A stretch of DNA of 32,000 nucleotides from Isorropodon fossajaponicum endosymbiont JTNG4 (GTDB lineage: Bacteria > Pseudomonadota > Gammaproteobacteria > PS1 > Pseudothioglobaceae), in NCBI RefSeq assembly GCF_016592615.1, contig NZ_AP013043.1:450001-482000 (forward strand). Reading direction: 5' to 3'. A program made the position numbers and the translations under genes. Under the pieces are notes generated by a model. The model saw only the letters and a program-made list of their open reading frames with translations. It made no database searches and was not told the origin of the DNA. Positions 14,848 to 32,000 of the stretch are shown one piece after another. How positions within the stretch are numbered: position 1 is the stretch's first letter; every line of letters begins with the position of its first letter.

Positions 14848-15123
14848 ATGCAAGCATTACTCACCCAATCCATCAGCCTAATCACTTCAACTCTATTAGT
14901 CTTCCTACTGGGTATATCTACCCAAGCAAGCGCAACCACAACTACAAACATTGATACCACCAACCCTAGTTGGCAGCACCGCAGGAGCTTTAAGCGTTAA
15001 CCAAGGTGCAGCAAACTACACCATCCCCATCACTGTCCCACCCGGTGTTGCAGGCATGCAACCCGAACTTAGTATTAACTACAACTCAAACGCTGGCAAC
15101 GGTATTCTAGGCATGGGCTTTAA
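14848..15123 (+). pseudogene. N-terminal fragment of an SpvB/TcB-type (Tc-toxin or Rhs/YD-associated) secreted toxin, frameshifted and truncated by the IS
   Basis: AGGAA RBS, then MQALLTQSISLITSTLLVFLLGISTQASA (signal peptide). After a frame change (14934-14966) comes GSTAGALSVNQGAANYTIPITVPPGVAGMQPELSINYNSNAGNGILGMGF, the hallmark N-terminal motif of SpvB-domain toxins. The sequence ends at the IS left end (15124). Confidence 0.7.
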
Positions 15124-15150
15124 TGCAATGCTCTAACCTACTTGGACACA
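15124..15150. repeat. IS left terminal inverted repeat
   Basis: These 27 nt are identical to the terminal 27 nt of the second copy at 31501-31527. Confidence 0.85.
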
Positions 15151-15188: not shown

Positions 15189-15540
15189 ATGACACAATAT
15201 AAATCAAGAAAACAACGAGTGACTTTTACCGTTGAACATTCTGTTCAATACCCCCTTGAGGGGGAAACACTAGATTATGCCAAACTCATGGTGCATGAGA
15301 ATTACACCAATAAAAAAAATCATGATAATATCAGGAGCTTGCTCCTCAGCAGTTAGCAGATGGAGAAAACAATACCTAGCAGAGCTTGGTGGACAAACAC
15401 CAGAGTCAGGCAAAGCGCTGACTTCTGAACAACAAACAATACAACTGCTTGAGAAACAACTTTGGCGCGCACAAAGGGACAATGAAATCTTAAAAAAGGC
15501 AACAGCCTTGTTCGCTGTGGACAATCACCAAGTGATATGA
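15189..15540 (+). pseudogene. IS3 transposase OrfA (HTH), frameshifted
   Basis: TATAAT (15161-15166) and AAGGAGG (15176-15182) precede ATG 15189. MTQYKSRKQRVTFT... runs to a stop at 15354. Homology (KKIMIISGACSSAVSRWRKQY...RDNEILKKATALFA) continues in the +1 frame. The switch fits one extra A in the A8 run at 15312-15319. Confidence 0.8.
15492..15498 (+). promoter_or_regulatory. Programmed -1 ribosomal frameshift heptamer A AAA AAG (orfA to orfB)
   Basis: The heptamer is in the X XXY YYZ phase of orfA. The -1 frame is the orfB frame (both frame 0 mod 3). Confidence 0.7.
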
Positions 15541-16394
15541 TTATCAAGATAAACAAGGCTTGCCAACAATACAATACTAAAGAATTATGAGCATTACTCA
15601 AACTTCCTCGCAGTAGTTATTACTATCAAGTCAAAGATAAGCGAGTAAACAACAACACCAACGCTATGATTAAATTAATCAAACAAACTGCTATTGAAGT
15701 TGGATACACCTATGGCAAACGCAGAATGCGAGTAGTTTTGAATAACCAAGGTTATAACATTGGTATTTACCAAACTGCAACGCTAATGAAAAAAGCCAAT
15801 GTAGTTGCCATACGCCCAAGAAAGCGTCATTATTACCCTAATACTAGATTGATGTTTAAAAAGGCAAAAAACCTATTAAATCGTGTGTTTGAGCAGCAAT
15901 CAATTAATACGCATTGGGTTGGTGATATTACCTATATCAAAACCTATCAAGGTGGGAGTTATTTAGCCAGTGTGTTGGATTTAGGCTCAAGACAAGTTGT
16001 TGGTTGGGCATTGTCAAAACAGCCTAATGCTCAGTTGGCAAAGGATGCGCTTAGTAATGCTGTGTCTAGACACCAGCCCAATACAAATAAACACATGTTC
16101 CACTCTGATCAAGGGACTCAATACTCTTCTAAAGTTTTTATTGATTATTGCAACAAGAACAACATTACTCAAAGCATGAGCAGGCGAGGTAATTGTTGGG
16201 ATAATGCGGTCATGGAGCGTTTCTTTAGAAGTCTGAAGACTGAGAGATTAAATTATCAAAGTTTTGCAAATCATAGTGAAGTCGTGCAAAATGTAGAGGG
16301 TTATATCTACTTGTATAATTACAAAAGGATTCATTCAGCGATTGGGTATTTAACACCTGCTCAAAAGATGGCTGAATTGAAAAAAGCGGCTTGA
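15498..16394 (+). pseudogene. IS3 transposase OrfB (DDE integrase domain) with a premature TGA
   Basis: The orfB frame reads ...MIIKINKACQQYNTKEL*ALLKLPRSSYYYQ. TGA at 15588-15590 sits where family members usually have Cys. The long ORF 15666-16394 (242 aa) carries the catalytic core. Confidence 0.8.
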
Positions 16395-16396
16395 AA

Positions 16397-16423
16397 TGTG
16401 TCCAAGTAGGTTAGGCCGTTACA
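16397..16423. repeat. IS right terminal inverted repeat, with the outer 9 nt diverged
   Basis: 16397-16414 is the exact reverse complement of 15133-15150. The outermost 9 nt (GCCGTTACA) match the expected AGCATTGCA at only 5 of 9 positions. Confidence 0.6.
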
Positions 16424-16541
16424 CTAAATCCAAGTTGATTGGTTAAAAGTGGTAATATTTGAGTGATAATTTATTCTTTATTTGGGTTTGTGCGTTAAAA
16501 TAAATCGCTAAAATTTTAAACATTATATGACGAGGAAAACT

Positions 16542-17795
16542 ATGTTCGATAAATCTCAAACGTTAGCTAAAGTAGATACTGAAATTCATCAGGCGATTGC
16601 ACTAGAAGAGGCTCGCCAAGAGGCGCATATTGAGTTAATTGCCAGTGAAAACTACACCTCACCTGCAGTGATGGAGGCGCAAGGCTCGCAATTGACGAAT
16701 AAGTATGCTGAGGGCTATCCTAAAAAGCGTTATTACGGTGGATGCGAGCATGTTGACACAGTTGAACAATTAGCGATTAACCGTGCTAAGGCATTATTTG
16801 GTGCGGATTATGCGAATGTTCAGCCACATTCTGGTTCTCAGGCGAATGCTGCAGTTTTTCAGGCATTGTTAGTGCCCGGAGATACAATTTTAGGCATGAG
16901 TTTGGCACATGGCGGGCATTTGACGCATGGTGCTGCGCCTTCGTTTTCGGGTAAAAACTTTAATGCCATTCAGTATGGCTTGAATGAAAAAACGGGTGAA
17001 ATTGATTATGAGCAAGTTGAGGCTTTAGCAAAAGAGCATAAGCCTAAAATGATTATTGCTGGTTTTTCGGCGTATTCACGTGTGGTTGATTGGCAGCGTT
17101 TTAGAGAAATTGCAGATGCTGTTAGCGCTTATTTAATGGTTGATATGGCGCATGTTGCAGGTTTGATAGCAACGGGTGAGTATCCATCGCCAGTGGCAAT
17201 TGCAGATGTAACCACAACAACCACGCATAAAACACTTCGCGGTCCTCGTGGCGGTTTAATTTTGGCTAAGGCTAATGAGGTAATTGAGAAGAAACTTAAT
17301 TCTGCTATTTTCCCTGGTATTCAAGGTGGACCACTGATGCATATTATTGCTGCTAAGGCGGTGAGTTTTAAAGAGGCAATGAGTGATGAATATAAGGCTT
17401 ATCAAAAGCAAGTAAAGATTAATGCACAAGTGATGGCCAATACATTTATTAAGCGTGGGTTTGATGTGGTGTCAGGTGGTACGGATGACCATTTATTTTT
17501 AGTAAGTTTTATTGACCAAGGATTAACAGGTAAAGCAGTAGATACTGCCTTAGGTAGTGCATATATTACAGTTAATATGAATGCCGTGCCAAATGACCCA
17601 CAATCCCCTTTTGTAACCAGTGGTATTCGCGTGGGCACGCCAGCAGTGACAACGCGTGGTTTTAATGAAAATGATTGTGCCGATTTAGCTACGTGGATGT
17701 GTGATATTTGTGATGATTTAGAGAATGAGGCTGTGATTGACAAGGTTAGAGAAAAAGTCACTAGCCTTTGTGCTAAGCACCCAGTTTATAACTAG
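16542..17795 (+). CDS. glyA: Serine hydroxymethyltransferase
   Basis: [18 protein letters not shown] and the PLP-lysine motif [19 protein letters not shown] (16532-16536) favours ATG 16542 over the track start at 16527. Confidence 0.95.
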
Positions 17796-17806
17796 ATTAA
17801 GCCTAT

Positions 17807-18147
17807 ATGCGTTGTCCATTTTGCCAATCTGATGATACTTAAAGTATTAGACACACGTTTGATTGATGATGGCTCTCAAGTACGTCGTCGTCGTGAGTGC
17901 ACTTCTTGTGGTGAACGTTATTCAACGCGTGAAACGGTTGATCTTAACCTACCACGCTTGATTAAAAGTGATGACTCTAGGGAGGCTTTTGATGAAGATA
18001 AACTGCGCTCTGGTTTGTTGAAAGCCTTAGAAAAACGCCCCGTTTAAACCTCGCAAATTGAAACCTCTATTGCGAGCATTGAGCGTAAATTAATGAGCCA
18101 AGCTGATCGTGAAAAGTGCCTTGTACTAAGATTGGCGAGTGGGTGTA
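17807..18147 (+). pseudogene. nrdR: Transcriptional repressor NrdR, heavily degraded
   Basis: [11 protein letters not shown] stops at 17840. Homology resumes one frame over ([31 protein letters not shown]...LEKRPV), consistent with an extra T at 17839/17840. An in-frame TAA lies at 18045-18047, followed by TSQIETSIASIERKLMSQADRE. There is another frame change near 18105-18115 (VPCTKIGEWV*). The rest of the ATP-cone is absent. Confidence 0.85.
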
Positions 18148-18209
18148 GGTTATCAATTAATGGCACAATAAATTTATCAATTGTTGCTTGACAAAGGTGC
18201 GTTAGAATA

Positions 18210-19571
18210 ATGGCAAAAACAAAAGTTGAATTTGTCTGTCGTGAATGCGGTTCTTCGCATCATCAATGGGCAGGGCAGTGCTTAGATTGTAAATCTTGGA
18301 ATACGCTAGAAGAGATTGTGTTGTTGCAAACTGCGCCATCAAAATCTACAATTTTGCAAGACCTTCCTGCCTCTAAAGTTCAAAATTTATCTGATATCAA
18401 ATCAGAAAATAAGGTTAGACTTTCAACGGGGCTAAGTGAGCTTGACCGTACTTTGGGTGGTGGCTTGGTTGATGGCTCGGTGGTGTTGATTGGTGGTGAC
18501 CCTGGTATTGGCAAATCAACTTTGATTTTGCAAGCGGTTGCTAAAATTAATCAAAAGCACACAACTTTGTATGTGAGTGGCGAGGAATCGGCTGACCAAA
18601 TCAGCGACAGGGCGTTGCGCCTTGGTATTAAAGAGGACATTCTTTTGCTGAGTGAAACGCATTTGGAAAAAATCATCACACTTGCTAAAGCAGTACAACC
18701 CAAAGTTATTGTCATTGATTCTATTCAAACCATGGTAACAGATGGCTCTACTTCGGTACCAGGCTCGGTAACACAAGTGCGTGATTGTGCTGCACAACTG
18801 ACTCAATTCGCCAAGCAAACCAATACCATTCTTTTAATGATTGGCCATGTTACTAAAGATGGTGTGTTAGCAGGTCCAAGAATTCTTGAGCATATGGTAG
18901 ACACGGTGCTTTATTTTGAAGGGGATGCAGGTGGGCGTTACCGTATTATCCGTGCGGTAAAAAACCGTTTTGGTGCAGTGAATGAAATTAGTATTTTTGT
19001 GATGAGCGAGGCAGGCTTACAACAGGTTGAGAATCCATCAGCAATATTTTTATCAAACTCAGCCAAGCCTTCACCAGGCTCTATGGTGATGGTAACACGT
19101 GAGGCAACTCGACCACTGATGATTGAAATACAAGCATTGGTAGATACTGCCAGTGGCAATTCTAAGCGTGTATGTGTTGGTTTGGATCAAAATCGTTTGG
19201 CTTTGCAACTTGCAGTACTACATAAGCATGGTGGCATTGCAACTCACGATCAAGATGTATTTGTTAATGTGGTTGGTGGTATTAAGATGAATGAGACTGC
19301 CTCAGATTTGGTGGTCATGTTGGCAATTATGTCTAGCTTGCGGGATAAGGTTATTCCCAAAGATTGGGTTGCTTTTGGTGAGGTGGGTTTAACGGGCGAA
19401 GTGCGTCCAGTTTATAACGGCATTGAGCGTTTGTCAGAAGCGCAAAAACATGGCTTTAAAGTAGCGATTATACCCAAGGGGAATGCGCCTAAAAAAATAC
19501 TTAAAGGGCTAAAAATTGTGCCGGTAGAATACTTGCATCAAGCTTTACAGTTTATGATTGAAAACACCTAA
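18210..19571 (+). CDS. radA: DNA repair protein RadA (Sms)
   Basis: 453 aa with zinc finger CRECG...CLDC, Walker A GGDPGIGKST, the KNRFG motif and a Lon-like C-terminal domain. Confidence 0.95.
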   Translation: MAKTKVEFVCRECGSSHHQWAGQCLDCKSWNTLEEIVLLQTAPSKSTILQDLPASKVQNLSDIKSENKVRLSTGLSELDRTLGGGLVDGSVVLIGGDPGIGKSTLILQAVAKINQKHTTLYVSGEESADQISDRALRLGIKEDILLLSETHLEKIITLAKAVQPKVIVIDSIQTMVTDGSTSVPGSVTQVRDCAAQLTQFAKQTNTILLMIGHVTKDGVLAGPRILEHMVDTVLYFEGDAGGRYRIIRAVKNRFGAVNEISIFVMSEAGLQQVENPSAIFLSNSAKPSPGSMVMVTREATRPLMIEIQALVDTASGNSKRVCVGLDQNRLALQLAVLHKHGGIATHDQDVFVNVVGGIKMNETASDLVVMLAIMSSLRDKVIPKDWVAFGEVGLTGEVRPVYNGIERLSEAQKHGFKVAIIPKGNAPKKILKGLKIVPVEYLHQALQFMIENT

Positions 19572-19597
19572 GATTTCAATCTAGGTAAGCTTTATGA

Positions 19598-20736
19598 TTA
19601 GAGGTCTATGTCTTTTTGGGCTTTAATATTTGCCCTAAAAGCGTGTTTAATGTCTTTAACTTCACTTACTGTGTCAGCAAGTTTGACTAAATTTTAGCTA
19701 GCCGCTCTACCTGTGATAATCACATGTTGATTTTTTGGGCGATCGGCTAAAACGTCAAGAATTTTTTGCTCATCAAGATATTTATAATTAATCATGTAAG
19801 TAAGTTCATCTAAAACCACCAAGTCAATGGATTGATTGGTTAGATATTTTCCAGCTTCAGACCAAGTTTTAACAGCTATTTTAGTGTCAAATGCTTTGTC
19901 TTGAGTGTCCCAAGTAAAACCTGTTTTCATCAGTGCGGTTTGTACGTTGGGTTGTTTGGCTAGAAATATATCTTCGCCTGTGTCTTGCGTGCCTTTTAAA
20001 AACTTGGCAATGCCAATGTTCATTCCATAACCCAGTGCACGGCAAATCATGCCCAGTGCAGATGATGATTTGCCTTTGCCCAGACAGGGTGCGCGACCAG
20101 AGGTATCAGTAATGGTGCTAGAAATCATGATTGGTAATTCGACATTGTCGTCTTCAAAGACTTGTTCAACCGCAAAGATAGCAGCTTTGGCGTTGAGTGT
20201 ATCAAAGATGGTTTCAATCAGAATAATATCCGCACCACCTTTAATCAAGCCACGAGTAGATTCTATATAAACATCAACCAACTCATCAAAGGTGACGTTT
20301 CTAAACCCAGGGTCGTTGACATCTGGCGAGAGTGAACAAGTGCGTGAAGTTGGACCAATAACACCAGCAACAAATCTTGGCTTTTCAGCACTTGAAAATT
20401 CATCTGCTACTTGGTATGCAATTTCGGCACTTTCAAGGTTAATTTCATAGGCCAATGCTTCCATTTTGTAATCAGACATGGAAGTACGCGTTGCATTAAA
20501 AGTATTGGTTTCAATAATATCAGCACCTACTTTTAAGTAGTCTTTGTGAATGTCTTTAATAATTTGAGGCTGAGTCAGTGAGAGTAAATCGTTGTTACCT
20601 TGAACCAAAACATACCAATCTTTAAAACGCTCGCCACGATAGTCTTGCTCGGTTAATTTATGCTTTTGAATCAAGCACCATCAAGTACTAAAATTCGCTG
20701 CTCTAAAAGGGATTGTAATATTTGTTTTGTATTCAT
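19598..20736 (-). pseudogene. Chimeric remnant: the N-terminal Hcy-methyltransferase domain of methionine synthase MetH fused in frame to the C-terminal part of corrinoid adenosyltransferase CobO/BtuR
   Basis: ATG at 20736 gives [21 protein letters not shown], then a frame break. ORF 20674-19694 reads [20 protein letters not shown]...[11 protein letters not shown]...[15 protein letters not shown] (MetH) and runs directly into [31 protein letters not shown]...GFTWDTQ...[11 protein letters not shown]...HVIITGR (CobO P-loop region). TAA at 19694-19696 is followed in frame by NLVKLADTVSEVKDIKHAFRANIKAQKDIDL*, the CobO C-terminus. Confidence 0.85.
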
Positions 20737-20782
20737 GGTTGGCATTATACAAGTATATAATAAGTTCTAAATTGTAAGGGGT

Positions 20783-21184
20783 GTGGTGAAAAAGATATTA
20801 TTACTTGGATTGCTAATTACAAGTTTAAATGCAACTGCATTTTTAGACTTTAACAGTTATGGCTCTGGTTATAAGAATAACGATTGGCCAGTTTGGACAC
20901 CCATGTACTGGATGGAAAGGGTGGATAATAACAGCGCTCGTTATAATTACCCTTATCCCTATAACAATCAAGCATTTAATACCAATGCCTCACGCTTTAA
21001 TATGAATCAAATGCCAACCCCTAATCAGGCATATCAAGCAGAAAATAATACCACGCCTTTGATGTATGAAACGCCCGCAGCCATGTCGTTTGCTAACCCT
21101 AATCATGCACCAATCATAAATAACCTTGGGTCGTCAAAGTCTTATGCTGACTATCGATATTCACGTAATCCTCGCTCTTTTTAA
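20783..21184 (+). CDS. Small secreted Asn/Tyr/Pro-rich low-complexity protein (paralogue 1 of 3)
   Basis: 133 aa with a GTG start after AAGGGG. Signal peptide MVKKILLLGLLITSLNATA|F. The mature part is rich in N, Y, P, W and M. Confidence 0.6.
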   Translation: MVKKILLLGLLITSLNATAFLDFNSYGSGYKNNDWPVWTPMYWMERVDNNSARYNYPYPYNNQAFNTNASRFNMNQMPTPNQAYQAENNTTPLMYETPAAMSFANPNHAPIINNLGSSKSYADYRYSRNPRSF

Positions 21185-21209
21185 ATATTAGCTTTGCTTA
21201 AAGACCAAT

Positions 21210-21237
21210 TTGCATAAATATATCATTATGTTATAAT
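21210..21237 (+). promoter_or_regulatory. Sigma70 promoter for the second small secreted protein gene
   Basis: TTGCAT (21210-21215), a 16-nt spacer ending in TGT (extended -10), then TATAAT (21232-21237). Confidence 0.5.
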
Positions 21238-21269
21238 ATAAATTGAATTAAATAAATGGAGATATGATA

Positions 21270-21617
21270 ATGAAAAAGATTTTTGCAATAGTGCTATTGG
21301 CATTCACTCTAAGTGCAAATGCATTTTGGAACAGCAACAACACCCCTTGGGGCAACAACCATAATGGTTATGGCTATCAAGAAGATAATGGCATGTTTGG
21401 CTACAACCCATACGATTTTTGGGATCCTCGTTGGTATCCAGAAGAAATGGGCAATATGTTTGACGAGTTTGACAACAATGGTTGGAGTAACAACAACAAC
21501 TATTATAGTTATGGTCGTAATGGTTATGGTTTCGCACCCAATGGTTATACAAATACCCCATGGGGACCTGGCGTTGTACCTAACATGACTACACCAGTAG
21601 TACCAACAGCAAGATAG
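21270..21617 (+). CDS. Small secreted Asn/Gly/Tyr/Trp-rich low-complexity protein (paralogue 2 of 3)
   Basis: GGAGA (21258-21262) favours ATG 21270 (the track start is 21264). Signal peptide MKKIFAIVLLAFTLSANA|FW. NTPWG occurs twice, with many GY/NGY units. Confidence 0.7.
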   Translation: MKKIFAIVLLAFTLSANAFWNSNNTPWGNNHNGYGYQEDNGMFGYNPYDFWDPRWYPEEMGNMFDEFDNNGWSNNNNYYSYGRNGYGFAPNGYTNTPWGPGVVPNMTTPVVPTAR

Positions 21618-21633
21618 CATAAAAGCTATGATT

Positions 21634-21663
21634 AAAAAACCAGCATTAGTTGCTGGTTTTTTT
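21634..21663 (+). terminator. Rho-independent terminator
   Basis: AAAAAACCAGCA (21634-21645), loop TTAGT, TGCTGGTTTTTT (21651-21662), extending into a T7 tract (21657-21663). Confidence 0.75.
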
Positions 21664-21725
21664 CGCTAAAAGTAAGGCATTAGGTTTATAATAACGATTA
21701 ATTAATAATTAAGGAGTGAAAAAGT

Positions 21726-22142
21726 ATGAAAAAAATAATAACAGTTTCCTTGCTAATATTGGCACTTAATGCTACTGCAAATTGGGGTAATAATTGGAAT
21801 AGCAACAGTCCAATGAATTTTGGCAACAACACGCCTTGGAATGGTGGTAACTTTAATAACGCGCCATGGGGTGGTAACAATTGGGGAAACTCTCCTTGGA
21901 ACAATAATAATTCTTTTACGCCGTTTAGAACTAATAACAACTTCAGTCCTTTTAATAATAGCAATGGTCAGCCGTTTAGTTTTGACACTGGCACTACTAG
22001 ACCTTGTGGGTTTAATACCAACCCTAATTCGTTTGGAGCAATGAATAATAGTCCTTGGAATTATGGCTACAATCAAGCAATCCCAGTAACGGCTGAAACA
22101 GAAAATGACGAGTCTTCAGTATCAACCGAAGACACTCAATAA
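21726..22142 (+). CDS. Small secreted Asn/Trp/Gly/Pro-rich low-complexity protein with an acidic tail (paralogue 3 of 3)
   Basis: AAGGAG (21711-21716) and TATAAT (21687-21692) lie upstream. Signal peptide MKKIITVSLLILALNATA|NW. About 34 of 138 residues are Asn (hand count). Repeated N-x-P-W-G/N units: NTPWN, NAPWG, NSPWN twice. C-terminal tail AETENDESSVSTEDTQ. Confidence 0.7.
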   Translation: MKKIITVSLLILALNATANWGNNWNSNSPMNFGNNTPWNGGNFNNAPWGGNNWGNSPWNNNNSFTPFRTNNNFSPFNNSNGQPFSFDTGTTRPCGFNTNPNSFGAMNNSPWNYGYNQAIPVTAETENDESSVSTEDTQ

Positions 22143-22158
22143 ATCTAAGTTGTGTAGT

Positions 22159-22183
22159 AAAACCGGCTTTATGCTGGTTTTTT
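22159..22183 (+). terminator. Rho-independent terminator, resembling the one at 21634
   Basis: AAAACCGGC, loop TTTAT, GCTGGTTTT (one G.U pair), extending into a T6 tract. Confidence 0.65.
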
Positions 22184-22261
22184 ATTGCCTGATTTGCTGC
22201 AAGCATTATGCTCATTAATGCTTGTCTGGGTTAAAATACTCATTAAACCTAGGAATAAAAA

Positions 22262-22654
22262 ATGAATACAGATTGCTTGTTTTGTCAATTGCGTGAAGAA
22301 AGAATTATTGGTCAGTGTGATTTAACTATTACGTTTTTAGACTCTTATCCTGCCTCTCCTGGGCATGCGTTGATTATCCCTAAAAGACACGTTGCTACTT
22401 ATTTTGATATTACCGAACAAGAGCAAAATGCGATTGCTAAAGCCATTCAAAAAGCCAAATTGATTCTTGATGAGGAGTTTTCTCCAGATGGTTACAACAT
22501 TGGTGTGAATAATGGTGAAGCAGCAGGGCAGAGCATTATGCACTTGCATGTGCACTTGATTCCTAGATATAAAGACGATGTTGAAAATCCTAAGGGTGGC
22601 GTGCGTTGGGTGATTTCAAACAAGGCTGATTATTGGAGTAATCGAGATAAATAA
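22262..22654 (+). CDS. HIT-family nucleotide hydrolase/transferase
   Basis: 130 aa with the histidine triad HLHVHLIPR and an ALIIPKRH motif. Confidence 0.85.
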   Translation: MNTDCLFCQLREERIIGQCDLTITFLDSYPASPGHALIIPKRHVATYFDITEQEQNAIAKAIQKAKLILDEEFSPDGYNIGVNNGEAAGQSIMHLHVHLIPRYKDDVENPKGGVRWVISNKADYWSNRDK

Positions 22655-22672
22655 CACATTTGAGCATGCAAT

Positions 22673-22698
22673 AAAAAACCCGTTTTAATGGGTTTTTT
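22673..22698. terminator. Probable bidirectional terminator between the convergent HIT gene and ssb
   Basis: AAAAAACCCG, loop TTTTAA, TGGGTTTTTT. The A-tract on one side and T-tract on the other allow function on both strands. The GC stem is short. Confidence 0.5.
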
Positions 22699-22722
22699 AT
22701 TGGTGTTGTGTATGTTTATTTT

Positions 22723-23214
22723 TTAAAAAGGAATGTCATCATCAAACCCAGAATTATCAACAGGTGCGATAGGGTCTGAGATTGGTGCTACTGCAGCTTG
22801 TTGCTGTGGTACAGGTGCAGAAGGCGCTGATTGTTGAGGTTGGGGCGCGCCACCCATATCAGTATTATCGTGACGATCTAACATTTGTAACGTGCTATTA
22901 AAACCAGACACAACTACTTCAGTCATGTAACGGTCAGCACCAGTTTGGTCTTGCCATTTGCGTGTTCTTAGGTTGCCTTCAACGTAAACCTTGGAGCCTT
23001 TGTGTAGGTATTGACCAGCAATCTCAGCTAATTTGCCAAATAAACTAACACGGTGCCACTCGGTTTTATCAACCTTTTGTCCTGTATTTTTATCTGTCCA
23101 GCTTTCACTGGTTGCAACGGATAAAGTGGTTACTGCTCTACCATCAGAGGTGTATTTCAATTCTACATCTTGACCTAAATTGCCTACTAAAATTACTTTG
23201 TTGATTCCTGCCAT
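22723..23214 (-). CDS. ssb: Single-stranded DNA-binding protein
   Basis: The internal Met gives [16 protein letters not shown] (canonical SSB N-terminus), an OB fold, a Pro/Gln-rich linker and the acidic tip DDDIPF. The track ORF extension to 23292 overlaps the upstream gene. Confidence 0.93.
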
Positions 23215-23228
23215 TTTTTTTGCTCCGA

Positions 23229-24404
23229 TTAATTTTCTGTTGCCCGTTTGATGGGTATTTTTTGCTTTGTTATTAGGATAATTATCCACCAAATAATTGC
23301 AATAAATGTGGTGAATAAGAATACACTATTTAGATTAGATATGTTGTAAATCCATCCGCCAACAATGCCACCAACGAACGCACCTAAAAACTGTGATGTA
23401 GCGTAAAAACCCATTGCCAAACCGCGTTTATCAGCACTTGCACTTGAAGCTATGAGTGAAGGTAGAATGGCTTCTAATGCGTTAAAAGCAATAAAGAATA
23501 AAGTTAAGAGAATAAAAAATGAAGTGTAAGTAAGTTGCATTTGGTAAAACAAAATTTGACTGATAATCAGCAGTGCAATGGCGCTTAAAAATACAGGTTT
23601 AATTTTTTGATATTTGGAAGCTAGAATAACCATTGGCAACATACCAACAAAGGACAAGATAATAATGGGTAAATACATTTGCCAACTGTCTTTAATATCA
23701 ACAATATTGTTTTCTTTTAAAAAGATTGGCATGGCGATAAAAGCACAAGTTAGGATTAAATGTAGCGCAAAGACGCTAAAATCTAGCCGTAGTAAATCAA
23801 CATTGATTACTTTTTTGATGTTTGCAATTGACAAAGCATACTGCTCTTTAGGTTTGGCGTTGGGCAGGGTACTAACAATAATCAGTGCAACAACAGAGAG
23901 CAAAGCAATCACCCAAAATAAACCAGATATGCCTAGATTAACACTGATGATAGGGCCTAGTAGTAAGGCCAGCATAAAGGCTACGCCTATTTGCACACCC
24001 ACAAAAGCATTGGCTTTGGAGCGTTGATTTTCACTAACAAAATCTGCTAAAAACGCCATCAATACTGCTGAAATAGCACCTGCACCTTGCAGCGCCCTAC
24101 CAATAACAATATCTATGATGTCTGTTGAGTTGGCGGCCACAACACTACCAATAAAAAAGATAACAAGACCAATGATTAGCATGGGTTTGCGACCATACTT
24201 GTCTGATAAATAGCCAAAGGGAATTTGTAATAACGCCTGAGTTAGTCCATAAATGCCAATAGCCAAGCCTATTAAGTAAGGTGTGGTACTGGTATATTCA
24301 CTGGCATAAACTGAAAATATAGGAAAAATCATAAACAAGCCCAGCATACGCGTGGCCATGATTAAAGAAATCTTAAATGCGAAAGCTCTTTCTTGTTTGT
24401 TCAT
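23229..24404 (-). CDS. MFS transporter
   Basis: 391 aa, about 12 predicted TM helices, with the MFS loop motif [11 protein letters not shown]. Confidence 0.85.
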
Positions 24405-24422
24405 TGGAGCTGGTTAAGAATT

Positions 24423-25190
24423 TTAGTCTTCTAAAGAGTAATGTGGTGTGTACGAAGGGTAGCTACTCTTTAGTACGCGACGTGCATCTTTTGCCAGTAT
24501 GTTTGCACTAATAGCGTCATAATTATAGGCTATTAAATGTAGTGCTGCAGGAACTGAAGGTGTGTTTGGATATTTTTCAATGATAAATTTAGTGCGGTTG
24601 ATGGCAGCAATATTAGCCCCTCTTTTGGTGTAGTAAATAGCTACAAATAACTCATGTCTTGATAAAATATTTCTAAGTATAACTAAATGGGTTTTGGCCT
24701 CTTCAGCATACTCGGTTTTGGGGAATTTATCAATCAGTGCTAGATAGTAGTTAAAGGCATCACGCACTGAGTTAACATCGCGCTGGGCGCTATCAGTAAG
24801 GTAGTCATCTAAAAATGAGCGAGATTTGTCTTGTGAAATAACGCCACGTAAATAATAGGCATATGGGGTTGAAAAGTGTTCTGGATAAAGCTTAATATAG
24901 TTATTTAAGCGATCAATTGCTTGATTGTAATCCTTGCTCTTATACAATGCATAAGCGATTTCTAATTTAGACCGTAGTGCATATTTTGAGCCAGGGTAGG
25001 CTACTTGTAGCTGTTCAAAAAGCGCAATGGCTTTGTCCGTTGAGCCTGATGAAGCCTCTTCTTTAGCTTGAGCAAAGAATGTTTTTGGCGACCAGCCTTT
25101 AGTAATAGATTCTCTTTTGGCTTCTTCTTGCCAAGAACAACCATTAAGTAATAATGTTAAAAAAGGTAGGATGATGAATAATTTTTTCAT
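24423..25190 (-). CDS. bamD: Outer membrane protein assembly factor BamD (lipoprotein)
   Basis: 255 aa with signal peptide and lipobox LLLNGC, TPR-like repeats, and length and sequence typical of BamD/YfiO. Confidence 0.85.
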   Translation of the reverse strand: MKKLFIILPFLTLLLNGCSWQEEAKRESITKGWSPKTFFAQAKEEASSGSTDKAIALFEQLQVAYPGSKYALRSKLEIAYALYKSKDYNQAIDRLNNYIKLYPEHFSTPYAYYLRGVISQDKSRSFLDDYLTDSAQRDVNSVRDAFNYYLALIDKFPKTEYAEEAKTHLVILRNILSRHELFVAIYYTKRGANIAAINRTKFIIEKYPNTPSVPAALHLIAYNYDAISANILAKDARRVLKSSYPSYTPHYSLED

Positions 25191-25276
25191 AACTTAAGGT
25201 ATTGTATGTGAGGGCATTATACTGGTGTGGTTGTATTATAATGGCAAAGATTTATCCTTAAATTTAACTATATTGA

Positions 25277-27379
25277 ATGAATTCACCTGATAAAAGAGTC
25301 CTAATTAGCGAGCTGTGTAATACGCTAGAAAATTATATGTCTAAAGAGCAAATTAAGGGTGTTTATCAGGCTTACACTGTTGCAGCGATGGCGCATGATG
25401 GGCAATATCGACAATCGGGCGAGGCCTATGTATTTCACCCCATATCAGTTGCTATGATTTTGGCAGAGTTAAAATTAGACTATTATTGTATTGTGGCAGC
25501 AATATTGCACGATTGTATCGAGGATACTTCAGTCACTTACGAGCAAATTAAATGTGATTTTGGTGATGAAATTGCACACATTGTAGAGGGAGTGTCCAAA
25601 CTAACTGGGCTGGAATTTCACTCAAACACAGACAAGCAAGCACAAAATTTTAGAAAGTTGTTTTTAGCCATGAGTGATGACATGCGTGTTATGGTAATCA
25701 AACTGGCGGATCGTTTGCACAATATGCAAACACTTGGCTCTATGCGTCGAGACAAGCAACTTAGAATTGCCAAAGAAACGGTAGAAATACATGCGCCCAT
25801 AGCGCGTCGCTTGGGTCTTAATAGTATTAGGGTTGAGCTTGATAATTTGTGTTTTGCTATTATTTATCCGTTTCGTAATAAAGTTTTGCTCAGTCAAATT
25901 AAAAAACAATGTGGCAATCGTAAGAAAACCATCAGTCACATCCAAACTGAAATAAAAAATCGACTAAACCAAGAAGGCATACCTAATGCCGATATCAATG
26001 GTCGTAGAAAGCAACCTTGTAGTATTTATAGAAAGATGAAAATCAAGCATTTGAAGTTTTCTCAGGTGTTAGACATGTATGCACTTAGGGTTATTGTGGT
26101 TGATGTGGCACAATGCTATCAAGCTCTAGGCATTATTCATAATTTATATAAGCCATTACCAGGCAAGTTTAAAGATTATGTGGCACTACCCAAATCAAAC
26201 GGCTATCAGTCGTTACATACAGTGCTATTTGGTCCTAACAAGATTTTTATTGAAGTGCAAATTCGCTCATCTGACATGCATTTTATTTCAGAATACGGCA
26301 TTGCTGCACATTGGCACTATAAGAGTGATTCTAATCATAAGTCAGAATTGGCTAATAACTGGTTAGGCTCATTACTTGATATTCAAAAAAATTCGGGCAC
26401 TTCTATTGAATTTTTAGAAGAAACCAAAGCAGATTTGTTCCCTTCCGAGGTGTTTGTTTTTACTCCTGAAGGGGATATTATTCAGCTACCTTATAAATCA
26501 ACCGTGCTTGATTTTGCCTACATGGTACATACTAGTATTGGCAATCACACCCTTAAAGCCAAGGTTGACCAAGTTAACACGCCCATTTCTACTGAATTAA
26601 AATCAGGACAAACCATTGAAATTATCACTGATGATAAGGCCACACCCAGGTCTTCTTGGTTACAAATTGTTATTACTGTAAAGGCCAGATCCTCAATCAA
26701 GGCATATCTTAAAAACGAATCTGCTGCTGAACTAATCCAACTGGGGGAATATTTATTAATCAATGCGCTGGATTATCAAAATATAGACACCGACGGCATT
26801 AATGAGGCTCAGTGGTTGGCATGCCTTAAAGCGTTAAATTGCGACTCTAAAGAAGACATGTATATGAAAATTGGATTGTCTGAGATTTTAGTATCAGTTG
26901 CACTGAACAAGTTGCAAGGCGATAACGCCAAGCACACAACGCAAAAAATTAGTATTCACAAAACCCAAGGTAAAGCCATTAGTTTTGCACATTGTTGCCA
27001 TCCCATCCCTGGCGATAAAGTGACTGGTGTTTTAACCACTTCTAAAGGTATGGTGATTCACAGGGTAATTTGTGCTAACTTGGTTCGTGCTAAGAGCAAA
27101 AATGCACAATGGCTTGATATTGATTGGCAAGCAGATAAAGACGAGGAATTTAAAGCCATGATTGATGTTGATGTTGCCAACCAAAGAGGTACACTTGCCT
27201 CTATTGCCAGTGTTATTTCAAAAATGAACATCAATATTGAGCGCTTAGAGATTCAAGAAAAAGACAATTCCATCAAATCACTCAATATGGTCATTAGTGT
27301 TGCAAATATCACTCAATTAAATGAGGTATTTGTACAGCTAAAGACGCTCGAATTTGTTCGAGATGTGAGTAGAGTGTGA
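25277..27379 (+). CDS. spoT: Bifunctional (p)ppGpp synthetase/hydrolase (SpoT-type RSH)
   Basis: 700 aa with an HD hydrolase motif (AAILHDCIEDT), the synthetase domain (YRKMKIK...GYQSLHT), and TGS and ACT-like C-terminal domains. Confidence 0.92.
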   Translation: MNSPDKRVLISELCNTLENYMSKEQIKGVYQAYTVAAMAHDGQYRQSGEAYVFHPISVAMILAELKLDYYCIVAAILHDCIEDTSVTYEQIKCDFGDEIAHIVEGVSKLTGLEFHSNTDKQAQNFRKLFLAMSDDMRVMVIKLADRLHNMQTLGSMRRDKQLRIAKETVEIHAPIARRLGLNSIRVELDNLCFAIIYPFRNKVLLSQIKKQCGNRKKTISHIQTEIKNRLNQEGIPNADINGRRKQPCSIYRKMKIKHLKFSQVLDMYALRVIVVDVAQCYQALGIIHNLYKPLPGKFKDYVALPKSNGYQSLHTVLFGPNKIFIEVQIRSSDMHFISEYGIAAHWHYKSDSNHKSELANNWLGSLLDIQKNSGTSIEFLEETKADLFPSEVFVFTPEGDIIQLPYKSTVLDFAYMVHTSIGNHTLKAKVDQVNTPISTELKSGQTIEIITDDKATPRSSWLQIVITVKARSSIKAYLKNESAAELIQLGEYLLINALDYQNIDTDGINEAQWLACLKALNCDSKEDMYMKIGLSEILVSVALNKLQGDNAKHTTQKISIHKTQGKAISFAHCCHPIPGDKVTGVLTTSKGMVIHRVICANLVRAKSKNAQWLDIDWQADKDEEFKAMIDVDVANQRGTLASIASVISKMNINIERLEIQEKDNSIKSLNMVISVANITQLNEVFVQLKTLEFVRDVSRV

Positions 27380-27458
27380 TTTAAAAAAAGCGACTAAATT
27401 TTTACCCATACCAAACCTTAGTTTGGTTAAAATTAAGATTTAATTTAAGGTATTTTTT

Positions 27459-27653
27459 ATGAATTGGACAGACTCCCTAGATATTGCGATGGCCTTAGAC
27501 GAGGCTCATCCAGAGGTTAATCCTAATATTATTAATTTTGTTGATCTTAGACAGATGGTGATTGCACTGGATAAGTTTGATGGTGATGCAAATAAATCAG
27601 GCGAAAAAATCCTTGAAGCCATCCAAATGAACTGGATAGAAGAAAAAGAATGA
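27459..27653 (+). CDS. iscX: Fe-S cluster assembly protein IscX
   Basis: 64 aa. MNWTDSLDIAMALDEAHPEVNP...GEKILEAIQMNWIEEKE aligns along its whole length with E. coli IscX/YfhJ as recalled from memory. Confidence 0.85.
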   Translation: MNWTDSLDIAMALDEAHPEVNPNIINFVDLRQMVIALDKFDGDANKSGEKILEAIQMNWIEEKE

Positions 27654-28924
27654 AGCAACTGCTTGTTTTTGTTTTATCACTTTATACCACCCTTGCTTGG
27701 GCAGTATTAGAAGTTACCATTCTCAAACAAGATGAAAATGCTTTCCCCATTGTTATTTCTGATTTTTCTGTTGTGGGTGATGCAAACCAAGGCAAAACTA
27801 TTGCACATGTTATGCGTGATAACTTTAATCGCTCGGGTGAATTTAGCGCCTCTGGTGCAAATTATGTGATTAATAACAAGCCCAATTTTGACAAATGGAA
27901 AGCAAAAAAAATTGAAGCTATTGTGCTTGGCAAGCTAGAAAAAATCAGCAAAAAAGTCTTCAATGTTGAGATTGAATTACTGGATGTTTATTCTAAGAAA
28001 ACACTCTATAAAGATAAATTTGCCGTGCACAATAGTGGCATTAGAAGAATTGCACACTATTTGTCTGATCAAATTTATCATGCTTTGTTAGGTGAAAGAG
28101 GCTCTTTTGATACGCGCCTAGCTTATATTACCGTTACTAATAAAGGCAAAGGTGGGCGTGAATATCGTTTAGAAATATCAGACTCTGATGCGCAAAATCC
28201 ACAAACCATCTTAAAATCTAAAGAGCCTGTTTTATCACCCGTTTGGTCACCTGACCAAAATAAAATTGCTTACGTGTCTTTTAGAAATGCCCGTTCAGAG
28301 GTGTTCATCCAATACCCATTTGTACGCCGAAAAACACAAAAATTGCCTTATTTTGATGGCATTGCCTCATCGCCATCTTGGCATCCAAATGGTAAAAGCC
28401 TTTTGCTCACGCTATCCAAAAACGGCAACAAGGATATTTATTCTTATCAATTAGCCTCTAAAAAACTAACAAGGCTGACTACAGATGTAAGCATCGATAC
28501 TGAGGCAAGTTACTCACCAGAGGGCGATAAAATTGTGTTTACCTCCAATCGTTCTGGACAGGTACAAGTTTATATTAAAGATTTAAAAACCAGTAAAATT
28601 AACAGAGCAACCTTTAAGGGCAGATATAATGCCAAAGCAGTTTTTTCTCCTGATGGTAAAAGCTTGGCTATGGTGCATAGGGTGGGTAAAGATTACCGTA
28701 TTGCCTTATTAGATATTGCCACTAAGGATTTGACTATTATGACAAATAATCAATTAGACGAATCACCATTTTTTTCACCAAATGGCGGTATGATTATCTT
28801 TGCTACTAATAAAGATAGCTCTGGTGTACTTTCTGTGGTTTCAATATTGGGTCGTCAAACCTTTGAACTGGCTAGTAAAGCAGGCGAAGTTAGAGAGCCA
28901 AATTGGTCACATTATTTAAAATAG
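27650..28924 (+). CDS. tolB: Tol-Pal system beta-propeller protein TolB
   Basis: 424 aa with a signal peptide and repeated SP(V)WSPDG/FSPDG propeller motifs. Followed by pal. Confidence 0.93.
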   Translation: MKQLLVFVLSLYTTLAWAVLEVTILKQDENAFPIVISDFSVVGDANQGKTIAHVMRDNFNRSGEFSASGANYVINNKPNFDKWKAKKIEAIVLGKLEKISKKVFNVEIELLDVYSKKTLYKDKFAVHNSGIRRIAHYLSDQIYHALLGERGSFDTRLAYITVTNKGKGGREYRLEISDSDAQNPQTILKSKEPVLSPVWSPDQNKIAYVSFRNARSEVFIQYPFVRRKTQKLPYFDGIASSPSWHPNGKSLLLTLSKNGNKDIYSYQLASKKLTRLTTDVSIDTEASYSPEGDKIVFTSNRSGQVQVYIKDLKTSKINRATFKGRYNAKAVFSPDGKSLAMVHRVGKDYRIALLDIATKDLTIMTNNQLDESPFFSPNGGMIIFATNKDSSGVLSVVSILGRQTFELASKAGEVREPNWSHYLK

Positions 28925-28934
28925 GAGGCGTTAA

Positions 28935-29504
28935 ATGTTAAAACTAATATCCCTAACAACAATAGTGTTGTTGTTGTCATGTTCATCCGTAGATGATTTG
29001 TATAAAAAAGTATTACCCAAGCCAAGCGTGGTTACCATTGAAGATAGGACGGAAAATACACAAGAAAATGTTATTGAGGCAGATCAGTCTAGTTTTCAAT
29101 CGCAAGGGTTTTCTAGAAGTGGTGTAGACACATCAAGCATTATTGAGCCAGTTGTCGTAGCAGATTTTAGAAACACGGACGTTAGTTTTGTTTTGTATTT
29201 TTACTATGATGGCACTGAGATTGATGAAGATTCAACCAAGCAAATCATCAAACATGCAAACTTTATGCGCAACAATCCAGCACTAAATTTACGCCTAGAA
29301 GGACATGCAGATGAGCGTGGCACGCGTGAATACAACCTAGCACTGGGTGAAAACCGCGCTTTAAGTGTTAAAGAAATCTTAGGCCTGTATGATCTTTCTT
29401 CAAGGGTTGAAGTTATTAGTTTTGGCGAGGAAAAACCCATACTACAGCACCACGATGAGGATGCATGGCAGAAAAACAGACGCGTTGAGTTTGTTTATCA
29501 ATAA
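28935..29504 (+). CDS. pal: Peptidoglycan-associated lipoprotein Pal
   Basis: Lipobox LLLSCSS and an OmpA-like C-terminal domain (LEGHADERGTREYNLALGENRA ... NRRVEF). Confidence 0.93.
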   Translation: MLKLISLTTIVLLLSCSSVDDLYKKVLPKPSVVTIEDRTENTQENVIEADQSSFQSQGFSRSGVDTSSIIEPVVVADFRNTDVSFVLYFYYDGTEIDEDSTKQIIKHANFMRNNPALNLRLEGHADERGTREYNLALGENRALSVKEILGLYDLSSRVEVISFGEEKPILQHHDEDAWQKNRRVEFVYQ

Positions 29505-29510
29505 AGATTA

Positions 29511-30194
29511 ATGCACCACCTTAGTTTGATTGCTTTTTTAAGTATTTTTGCTTGGCAGCCTGTCAGTGCAGGCATTAATACAGACAAGGTGGTGATGGGT
29601 CACAATCAAAAAACAAAGCGCTTGTTGGTGCGTAAAAACAAAGCCTTGTTGGGCAAAATTGAGCTTTTAGAGCAACAACAAAAAATAAGCACTGGAAAAA
29701 TCAAAGAGCTGTTTAACTTAATCACTTATCAAAAATCCAGTGCCACCATTGTAAAAACCACGCTCAGAGTCAGAGAGCATGATCAAAAAGCCAAGCGCAT
29801 TTATACGCAAGCGCGCAGCTTATTAGTGACGGATCAATACGACCAAGCCATTAAATTGTTTAAACAATATTTAGCTACTTATCCGAATAATAATCACACC
29901 TCAGATGTGCACTATTGGTTAGCCAAATCTTATTTAGCTAAAGATGATTTTTACAATGCTAGAAATACTTTTGTTACATTTCAACAACAAAACCCATTGC
30001 ACTATAAGTTTTCAAACTCTTTGTTTGAGTTGGCTAAAGTATATATAGAACTTAACCAACAAGACAAGGCACGTGGCTTGTTAAGCACAATGCTGGTTAA
30101 ATTCCCCTCGCATAAAGCAATTAATAGAGCTAAACAACTGCTGAACAAAATCATCACCCCTAAGCCAAAGATAAATAAATTAATCATCAATTAA
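29511..30194 (+). CDS. cpoB: Tol-Pal-associated cell-division coordinator CpoB (YbgF)
   Basis: 227 aa with a signal peptide, an N-terminal coiled coil and C-terminal TPR repeats. It occupies the conserved position after pal. Confidence 0.8.
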   Translation: MHHLSLIAFLSIFAWQPVSAGINTDKVVMGHNQKTKRLLVRKNKALLGKIELLEQQQKISTGKIKELFNLITYQKSSATIVKTTLRVREHDQKAKRIYTQARSLLVTDQYDQAIKLFKQYLATYPNNNHTSDVHYWLAKSYLAKDDFYNARNTFVTFQQQNPLHYKFSNSLFELAKVYIELNQQDKARGLLSTMLVKFPSHKAINRAKQLLNKIITPKPKINKLIIN

Positions 30195-30195
30195 A

Positions 30196-31485: not shown

Positions 31486-31500
31486 CATTTGAATTCAAAC

Positions 31501-32000
31501 TGCAATGCTCTAACCTACTTGGACACATTTCAAGCCGCTTTTTTCAATTCAGCCATCTTTTGAGCAGGTGTTAAATACCCAATCGCTGAATGAATCCTTT
31601 TGTAATTATACAAGTAGATATAACCCTCTACATTTTGCACGACTTCACTATGATTTGCAAAACTTTGATAATTTAATCTCTCAGTCTTCAGACTTCTAAA
31701 GAAACGCTCCATGACCGCATTATCCCAACAATTACCTCGCCTGCTCATGCTTTGAGTAATGTTGTTCTTGTTGCAATAATCAATAAAAACTTTAGAAGAG
31801 TATTGAGTCCCTTGATCAGAGTGGAACATGTGTTTATTTGTATTGGGCTGGTGTCTAGACACAGCATTACTAAGCGCATCCTTTGCCAACTGAGCATTAG
31901 GCTGTTTTGACAATGCCCAACCAACAACTTGTCTTGAGCCTAAATCCAACACACTGGCTAAATAACTCCCACCTTGATAGGTTTTGATATAGGTAATATC
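31501..32000 (-). mobile_element. Second copy of the IS3-family element, inverted orientation, truncated by the window edge
   Basis: 31501-31527 is identical to the IRL of copy 1. The encoded OrfB C-terminal 140 aa (31530-31952) are identical to copy 1. Confidence 0.9.

Follow-up and report, generated by a model that had tools for sequence, protein, structure and literature searches.

A decayed metH–cobO chimera in a Candidatus Ruthia-type clam symbiont genome

Breusing et al. (bioRxiv 10.1101/2020.10.19.345819) report that the genes metH, btuM and btuR/cobA are conserved in Candidatus Vesicomyosocius and missing or degenerated throughout Candidatus Ruthia except in R. phaseoliformis and R. 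southwardae, that metE and metR are confined to Ruthia, and that metH has been inactivated several times independently, even between very close lineages. Perez et al. (bioRxiv 10.1101/2020.02.01.930370) describe inversions among clam-symbiont genomes and, for the symbionts R. phaseoliformis and R. southwardae, structural variation within hosts. Here we present a locus from the Isorropodon fossajaponicum endosymbiont JTNG4 in which the minus strand of positions 20736-19598 carries a remnant built from two unrelated genes, the 5' part of metH (methionine synthase) and the 3' part of cobO/btuR (corrinoid adenosyltransferase); positions are those of the window, the whole 32,000-nucleotide stretch that was analysed (contig NZ_AP013043.1, positions 450,001 to 482,000). 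Our analysis revealed that this metH-cobO locus is a dead chimeric pseudogene and not a functional fusion. The case resembles the Ruthia losses of Breusing et al. in clade, genes and direction, with B12-dependent methionine synthesis and corrinoid handling both lost, and the joint abandonment of B12-dependent functions that a first-pass annotation of the window had proposed is in keeping with those published findings. It differs from them in that the remnants are physically joined in one open reading frame (ORF), a joint that the accessible text of that paper does not mention, and in that the window lineage is ~97% identical to a metagenome-assembled genome (MAG) of the Abyssogena southwardae symbiont, Candidatus Ruthia sp. 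Asou_11_S2, which keeps both genes. That B12 genes are lost in the clade was known before; the locus adds a further independent instance, ~3% diverged from a MAG in which both genes survive, and its remnants are joined.

Chimeric ORFs at deletion or inversion joints are a general feature of reductive genome evolution in symbionts and pathogens. The locus is like them in its short-homology joint, in the truncated unrelated genes that share one frame, in its additional lesions, in its neutral substitution pattern and in its background rich in insertion sequences (IS), and it does not differ from them in principle; its particular feature is that both partners belong to one cofactor system. Stand-alone MetH N-terminal proteins of ~350 aa, found for example in Pseudoalteromonas and annotated as 'homocysteine S-methyltransferase family protein', are among the matches of the chimera and also hold the homocysteine module as a frame of its own, but they keep the whole barrel and the zinc ligands, whereas the window retains only codons ~25-219 in that frame and no native start. 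The second half is similarly comparable to CobA/CobO/BtuR enzymes (PDB 1G5R, 4HUT), with which ORF residues 199-324 align, GKGK(S/T) included; unlike these enzymes, it is without the N-terminal 28-37 residues and the strand that precedes the P-loop, its last 31 residues are cut off by a TAA, and its profile scores lie below the curated cut-offs.

Architecture and decay of the chimera

The elements of the locus, from the metH promoter region to the native cobO stop, are as follows.

20744..20771, minus strand: promoter-like site TTTAGA-16-TATAAT upstream of the native metH start, with 10 of 12 matches; a putative promoter
20671..20736, minus strand: metH 5' remnant, with the native ATG at 20734-20736, 21 codons and a premature TGA at 20671-20673 that results from a frameshift (tblastn with a relative's MetH residues 4-24)
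20673..20674, minus strand: site of a 10-nt deletion of ATGGGyACCA, codons 22-24 plus 1 nt (alignment with four relatives)
20093..20674, minus strand: metH remnant in the ORF frame, codons ~25-219, part of the homocysteine-binding barrel (97% DNA identity to Asou_11_S2 metH)
20081..20092, minus strand: metH codons 220-223, out of frame and read as 'APCL' (alignments)
20075..20080, minus strand: recombination joint GGCAAA (BLAST end points and alignments)
19697..20080, minus strand: cobO/btuR remnant from GKGKS, codons 29-156 of the 188-codon Asou_11_S2 gene, equal to profile positions 38-164 of 197
19694..19696, minus strand: nonsense TAA, where relatives have CAA (Gln157), AAA or GAA (alignment)
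19598..19693, minus strand: cobO 3' remnant, 31 in-frame codons after the TAA and the native stop at 19598-19600

The chimeric MetH/CobO frame is a 326-codon ORF on the minus strand (20674-19694), opened by a TTG at 20672-20674. Its residues 1-195 match positions 30-226 of the 1234-position NCBIfam methionine synthase profile NF007024 (E = 2.4e-92), and residues 199-325 match positions 38-164 of 197 in the cob(I)yrinic acid a,c-diamide adenosyltransferase profile NF004637 (E = 1.3e-43). Alignment with PDB sequences gives the same limits, human MTR residues 27-224 for the first half and Salmonella CobA residues 38-162 for the second. By these profile and sequence comparisons both matches are far beyond chance, and the two sets of alignments agree with the first-pass description of a MetH part up to about residue 195 that continues as CobO/BtuR from GKGKS. 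Counted at the level of the genes, the window holds metH codons 1-224 and cobO/btuR from the GKGKS P-loop to its native stop, while the locus is without ~990 codons of metH and the first 28-37 of cobO, close to the ~1000 metH codons and first cobO codons that had been estimated as lost. A tblastn search of the window with a full MetH query found no metH piece besides the known remnant. The 46-nt intergenic region that holds the promoter-like site is almost identical in relatives by alignment, and at the other end of the locus the cobO 3' remnant is convergent with radA, whose end is at 19571.

Neither half would be expected to retain the activity of its parent enzyme. The MetH part scores 310.5 bits against a curated cut-off of 1497 (NF007024 / TIGR02082) and is without four of the five modules. 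The zinc-binding cysteines of Escherichia coli MetH are Cys247, Cys310 and Cys311, and in the window these cysteines of the homocysteine module are absent, with in-frame MetH ending at codon ~219 and metH DNA at codon ~224. Judged from its sequence, the product cannot work as MetH, as the start-proximal strand, the zinc cysteines and the folate, B12 and AdoMet modules are all missing. The CobO part falls short of a full-length protein on both profiles, with 149.0 bits where the cut-off is 185 and 128.8 bits where it is 167.75 (NF004637 / TIGR00708), and only GKGKS is left of the P-loop GNGKGK(S/T), the strand preceding it and the N-terminal segment. With its N-terminal 28-37 and C-terminal 31 residues gone, the predicted product cannot work as CobO either.

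Five lesions separate the locus from the intact metH and cobO of Asou_11_S2, to which it is 97-99% identical, and comparison with these intact orthologues upholds the earlier view that both genes are inactivated here. Exactly 10 nt (ATGGGyACCA) are missing between 20674 and 20673 relative to four relatives, which takes out the MGT of LDGAMGT and sends the frame from the native metH start into a TGA after codon 21; the first-pass annotation had noticed this lesion as an indel of about 10 nt that removes (A)MGT after LDGA. It had likewise pointed to the TAA at 19694-19696 ahead of a recognisable CobO C-terminus, and alignment confirms that the CAA (Gln) of the closest relatives has become TAA, 31 codons ahead of the native stop, with the CobO C-terminus continuing in frame behind it. 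Between these two lesions, a 2-nt GC insertion lies at 20091-20092, where relatives read GGTCGy directly followed by ACCCT. Three of the lesions, namely the 10-nt deletion, CAA>TAA and the +2 GC insertion, probably arose independently of one another in the course of decay.

The joint can be placed to within a few nucleotides. By BLAST and alignment, metH homology stops at 20075 and cobO homology begins at 20080, and the hexamer GGCAAA between these points is common to metH (GG GCA AA) and cobO (GGy AAA). The shared homology would be a perfect 6 nt if the ancestral cobO read GGC AAA, as it does in three relatives, and 3 nt perfect, or 5 of 6, if it read GGT AAA, as it does in the two closest; in a random-joint simulation with these genes, homology of at least 6 nt had a probability of 0.003 and homology of at least 3 nt one of 0.06. 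The hexamer begins at codon position 2 in metH and at position 1 in cobO, which leaves the joint out of frame by one base, and the GC insertion 11 nt upstream puts the ORF into the cobO frame. Because of this insertion, the residues 'APCL' are metH DNA in a shifted frame, and the ORF is continuous across both halves only because a separate +2 change restored the frame. That the insertion joins the halves in one frame is probably an accident, for which a chance of 1 in 3 suffices as explanation. Two details of the first-pass annotation are thereby corrected: it had placed the junction at about 20081-20093, which is largely out-of-frame metH DNA (20081-20092) beside the true joint at 20075-20080, and it had taken the fusion itself to be in frame.

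Substitution patterns point to a loss of selection on the remnant. On counts taken by branch, for which Asou_11_S2 served as the sister lineage and another relative as the outgroup, the remnant has accumulated 10 non-synonymous to 3 synonymous changes (N:S) on the window branch, small numbers that amount to 77% N against a neutral expectation of 78% N from site counts. Nine intact neighbour genes have N:S 28:44 on the same branch (Fisher p = 0.015; binomial p = 0.008), and the same parts of metH and cobO, intact on the Asou branch, have 1:5 (p = 0.04). With more distant sisters the contrast is 16:11-15 in the remnant against 43:135 (p = 0.0004-0.004). Some of the replacements specific to the window fall at conserved positions, for example within ISGTITDASGR. 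Pairwise dN/dS, at 0.12-0.20, looks constrained and was rejected as a test since it averages over a long shared history; the branch counts were used in its place.

The fusion has no counterpart in the collections searched. No protein among ~5.8 billion clusters covers both halves, and the architecture occurs in none of the 566 confirmed candidate loci obtained from a scan of 185,579 species genomes. A degenerate-pattern scan of JGI metagenomes for the forward joint gave 0 matches, and exact-protein look-ups of the window RadA and HIT proteins, made for independent assemblies, returned no record. The same 326-aa architecture under purifying selection in relatives, which the first-pass annotation had named as the observation that would make this a functional fusion, was seen in none of them, and the substitution ratio of the remnant is neutral.

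Gene order in relatives and the origin of the joint

The flanks of the window and both halves of the chimera are closest to the SUP05 / Candidatus Ruthia clade (GTDB 'Ruthturnera') of clam and mussel symbionts, and the 90% clusters of the window proteins include Candidatus Ruthia sp. Asou_11_S2, Candidatus Ruthia endofausta and the Abyssogena phaseoliformis symbiont. The closest reference is Asou_11_S2, with 97.2% DNA identity over 20075-31620 and 96-99% over 16424-20080, and its metH (1220 aa) and cobO (188 aa) are both intact and lie on two separate contigs. Since both genes are intact and separate in this ~97% identical genome, the chimera arose after that split and is recent and lineage-specific.

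In all relatives cobO is the last gene of an operon that begins with a cobalamin riboswitch and continues with a btuB-like TonB receptor and a ~190-codon gene, and this operon is convergent with radA-nrdR-glyA. The ~190-codon gene matches no Pfam or NCBIfam family, and the literature name btuM is not adopted for it here. Relatives carry metH elsewhere, downstream of a conserved block that comprises relA, bamD, an MFS gene, ssb, a HIT gene and small Asn-rich ORFs. Over 16424-20080 the window is collinear with the cobO block, and the stretch that starts at 20075 and extends past 31485 is collinear with the block upstream of metH; an Rfam scan found no cobalamin riboswitch in the window, in contrast to the one upstream of btuB in relatives. 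The two genes are arranged in three relatives as follows.

CP125320.1: metH on the minus strand at 486,021-489,674, cobO on the plus strand at 931,708-932,274, 442 kb apart
Candidatus Ruthia sp. Apha_13_S6 contig: metH on the minus strand at 342,248-345,910, cobO on the plus strand at 511,628-512,221, 166 kb apart
Outgroup Thioglobus contig ctg48072: metH on the plus strand at 386,110, cobO on the plus strand at 279,097, 107 kb apart, cobO first

In CP125320.1 and Apha_13_S6 the metH upstream block is situated between metH and cobO. A single deletion in this Ruthia arrangement would join two 3' parts tail to tail, and a deletion in the outgroup arrangement would give a cobO-5'/metH-3' product, so that either layout requires an inversion. 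On these gene orders an inversion is needed, which either preceded the deletion or itself made the joint. GC skew in the flanks, computed as a possible sign of a replichore change of the two blocks, takes small values that are dominated by local gene content. One deletion as the origin of the chimera, the first-pass proposal, can therefore hold only for the closing step of a route that starts with an inversion: in none of the relatives does metH lie beside cobO, and comparison with the syntenic locus, which had been suggested as a way to size the event, finds the genes 107-442 kb apart and a deletion of ~8.1 kb only after an inversion in the CP125320.1 layout.

Two further observations concern these genes in relatives. 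The cobO of Apha_13_S6 (L091 6112-6594) has 79% DNA identity to window 19598-20080 (dS ~1.06), whereas radA and glyA of the same genome are close to the window (dS 0.19-0.29), and CP125320.1 shows the opposite pattern, a sign that the btu operon may have recombined or been replaced among Ruthia lineages. In the SUP05-clade assembly GCA_029237605.1, on a 703-kb contig (L001 10001-13674), metH is split into four ORFs and tolB, relA and ribBA are split too, reflecting either independent decay or an error-rich long-read assembly.

Our tentative preference is for an inversion through IS copies followed by a short-homology (illegitimate) deletion, in an IS-rich, eroding genome of the Candidatus Ruthia type. 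An inversion, probably by homologous recombination between IS copies, would have set metH head-to-tail upstream of the B12-uptake operon, and a several-kb deletion between the GG(C/T)AAA in metH codons 223-225 and the GG(C/T)AAA in the cobO P-loop would then have taken out everything from the final ~990 codons of metH through the DNA in between to the first 28 codons of cobO; both the order of events and the IS-mediated first step we infer. CP125320.1 illustrates how this could proceed. There two copies of a 1.27-kb IS, 98% identical and inverted on the chromosome, are placed one at 2.8 kb downstream of metH and the other between btuB and the ~190-codon gene. Their recombination would line up metH, IS, ~190-codon gene and cobO in tandem, after which a deletion between the hexamers would reproduce the joint of the window. 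Both Asou assemblies end 100-194 nt past metH, as expected at a repeat, and the window contains an inverted pair of 99%-identical IS3 copies of its own as well as a 478-nt deletion in nrdR. In the 44 kb sampled, CP125320.1 has four copies of this 1.27-kb IS (95-98% identical), one of them inside the btuB-cobO operon, so this genome is IS-saturated and its B12-uptake operon already interrupted.

L082 7755-9023 and 14386-15652: two copies of the 1.27-kb IS, CP125320.1
L088 16419-17686 and 19616-20817: two further copies of the 1.27-kb IS, CP125320.1

Several points weigh against the IS-mediated route. Asou_11_S2 is without any IS in the 14 kb upstream of cobO, so that the two steps would need an extra IS insertion on a short branch, and its assembly, the nearest guide to the gene order of the immediate ancestor, is fragmented. 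In the window, tblastn found no trace of the lost DNA, be it IS, btuB, ~190-codon gene, metH 3' part or cobO 5' part; with full CobO, BtuB, the ~190-aa protein and the metH-downstream genes as queries, the only hit besides the known remnant was an unrelated, 29%-identical M48 peptidase. The substitution counts that speak for decay are few. A single reciprocal inversion, moreover, explains the same local structure with one event. This alternative, in which inverted GG(C/T)AAA hexamers in metH (minus strand) and cobO (plus strand), 166-442 kb apart, underwent illegitimate recombination that turned round the segment between them and broke the two genes together, with nothing deleted, is possible if doubtful. 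From the CP125320.1 or Apha_13_S6 layout one such event yields exactly the structure of the window, the hexamers being inverted repeats on the chromosome in the Ruthia layout, and the IS-free btu operon of Asou_11_S2 poses it no difficulty; inversions between clam-symbiont genomes and within-host structural variation are on record (bioRxiv 10.1101/2020.02.01.930370). It asks, however, that two random breakpoints both hit small, functionally linked genes. Large inversions through 3-6 nt of homology are also much rarer than IS-mediated inversions or short-homology deletions, which counts against it. A reciprocal inversion would leave a cobO-5'/metH-3' chimera at its other end, preceded by btuB and the ~190-codon gene; this reciprocal joint is not in the 32-kb window and had 0 matches in JGI metagenomes, a weak objection given that the forward joint is also unmatched there. 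That metH and cobO were already same-strand neighbours in the direct ancestor, and were joined by one local deletion with no inversion, is very unlikely. The joint does resemble that of a deletion, in that the transition is clean and the short homology is direct in gene sense, but in the three relatives where both genes share a contig they are neither adjacent nor arranged with metH ahead of cobO, cobO sits in the conserved operon convergent with radA in all relatives, and metH is followed there by other genes or IS elements.

The remaining alternatives concern whether the locus is what it appears to be. A redundant partial copy or minority structural variant, with intact metH and cobO persisting elsewhere in the genome or population, seems improbable to us. 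Within-host structural variation has been reported for the closest named lineages (bioRxiv 10.1101/2020.02.01.930370), the segment is bracketed by inverted IS3 copies, and R. southwardae-type symbionts are reported to keep metH and btuR. A second copy of the region is nevertheless hard to reconcile with the flanking genes (radA, glyA, relA, tolB and others), which are intact with a single-copy-like N:S of 28:44 against 29:49 in the sister, with exact-sequence look-ups that place each window protein on one contig only, and with the very low duplication that Breusing et al. report for these genomes (bioRxiv 10.1101/2020.10.19.345819). An assembly artefact that misjoined unrelated loci at 20075-20080 carries a slight probability only: it would account for the absence of the joint from every independent assembly searched, yet 3-6 nt of shared sequence are far below any assembler's k-mer, both halves have disabling lesions of their own and a neutral pattern, expected only if the genes are truly dead, and the neighbouring long genes are free of frameshifts, so sequence quality is generally good. 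Least credible is a functional new fusion, in which a truncated homocysteine module and a P-loop module would be translated from the TTG at 20674, overlapping the stop of the 21-codon leader. For it speak a 326-codon open frame behind a metH promoter predicted to be intact and a +2 insertion that restores the frame just ahead of the joint. The N:S of 10:3 on the window branch is the neutral expectation, though, neither 5.8 billion proteins nor 185,579 species genomes contain the architecture a second time, the cuts run through the fold of each domain and the MetH part ends before the zinc cysteines, the CobO score lies under both curated cut-offs, and the frame had a prior of 1 in 3 of being restored by chance.

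Other features of the window

An IS3-family element begins at ~15,120, with orfA at 15277-15540 and orfB at 15666-16394. It is present in two inverted copies, 99% identical, that bracket a 15,077-nt segment with glyA, nrdR and radA, the chimera and the entire block upstream of metH.

15924..16423, plus strand: right end of the IS3-family element (orfB 15666-16394), one arm of the 99%-identical inverted pair; context
31501..32000, minus strand: second, inverted IS3 copy, running off the window; context, with the same insertion present in Asou_11_S2

The right-hand insertion is common to Asou_11_S2, whose contig ends inside it, and on the glyA side a different IS end lies 38 nt away in Asou. The window IS3 is unlike any IS in the compared loci of the relatives, and no tie between it and the joint was found. 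Cut beside the IS3, positions 14951-15136 hold a 61-codon fragment similar to the N-terminus of SpvB/Tc toxins (PF03534 positions 4-45 of 287, E = 1.7e-9), probably the remnant of a toxin-related gene.

The nrdR gene (17808-18209) is also a pseudogene relative to three relatives, with a +1 T near its start, an AAA>TAA change and a +2 AA insertion, and a ~478-nt deletion has taken its 3' end together with almost the whole GDSL-lipase gene next to it; according to Breusing et al. (bioRxiv 10.1101/2020.10.19.345819), Candidatus Ruthia has retained nrdR. Just upstream of metH, 20783-22142 encode three tandem paralogous small ORFs (133, 117 and 138 aa) with signal-peptide-like starts and Asn/Trp/Pro-rich sequences, conserved at this place across SUP05-clade genomes and matching no Pfam family. 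Two further genes are possibly damaged: an MbnB/TglH-like ORF at 520-1131 begins at profile position 43, and a glutamate-synthase-domain ORF at 2620-3528 covers profile positions 179-368 only and overlaps the ORF 2102-2674 in another frame.

Significance for B12 dependency in the clade

In summary, the locus provides a nucleotide-level and roughly dated example of a clam symbiont dismantling its B12 dependency. It leaves general understanding unchanged and is a case of ordinary genome decay. It also offers a caution for annotation, as a rearrangement joint combined with a chance compensating indel can mimic a 326-codon, in-frame bifunctional protein, and the joint can serve as a simple PCR marker for the structural rearrangement in this lineage.

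It is conceivable, though short of probable, that one reciprocal inversion through 3-6 nt cut metH and cobO together and so ended both B12-dependent methionine synthesis and corrinoid adenosylation in an R. southwardae-like symbiont lineage. If this were the case, the locus would represent a datable 'one-hit' loss of a cofactor dependency, with a reciprocal chimera hundreds of kb away, and the joint would mark a large inversion that possibly still segregates within hosts.

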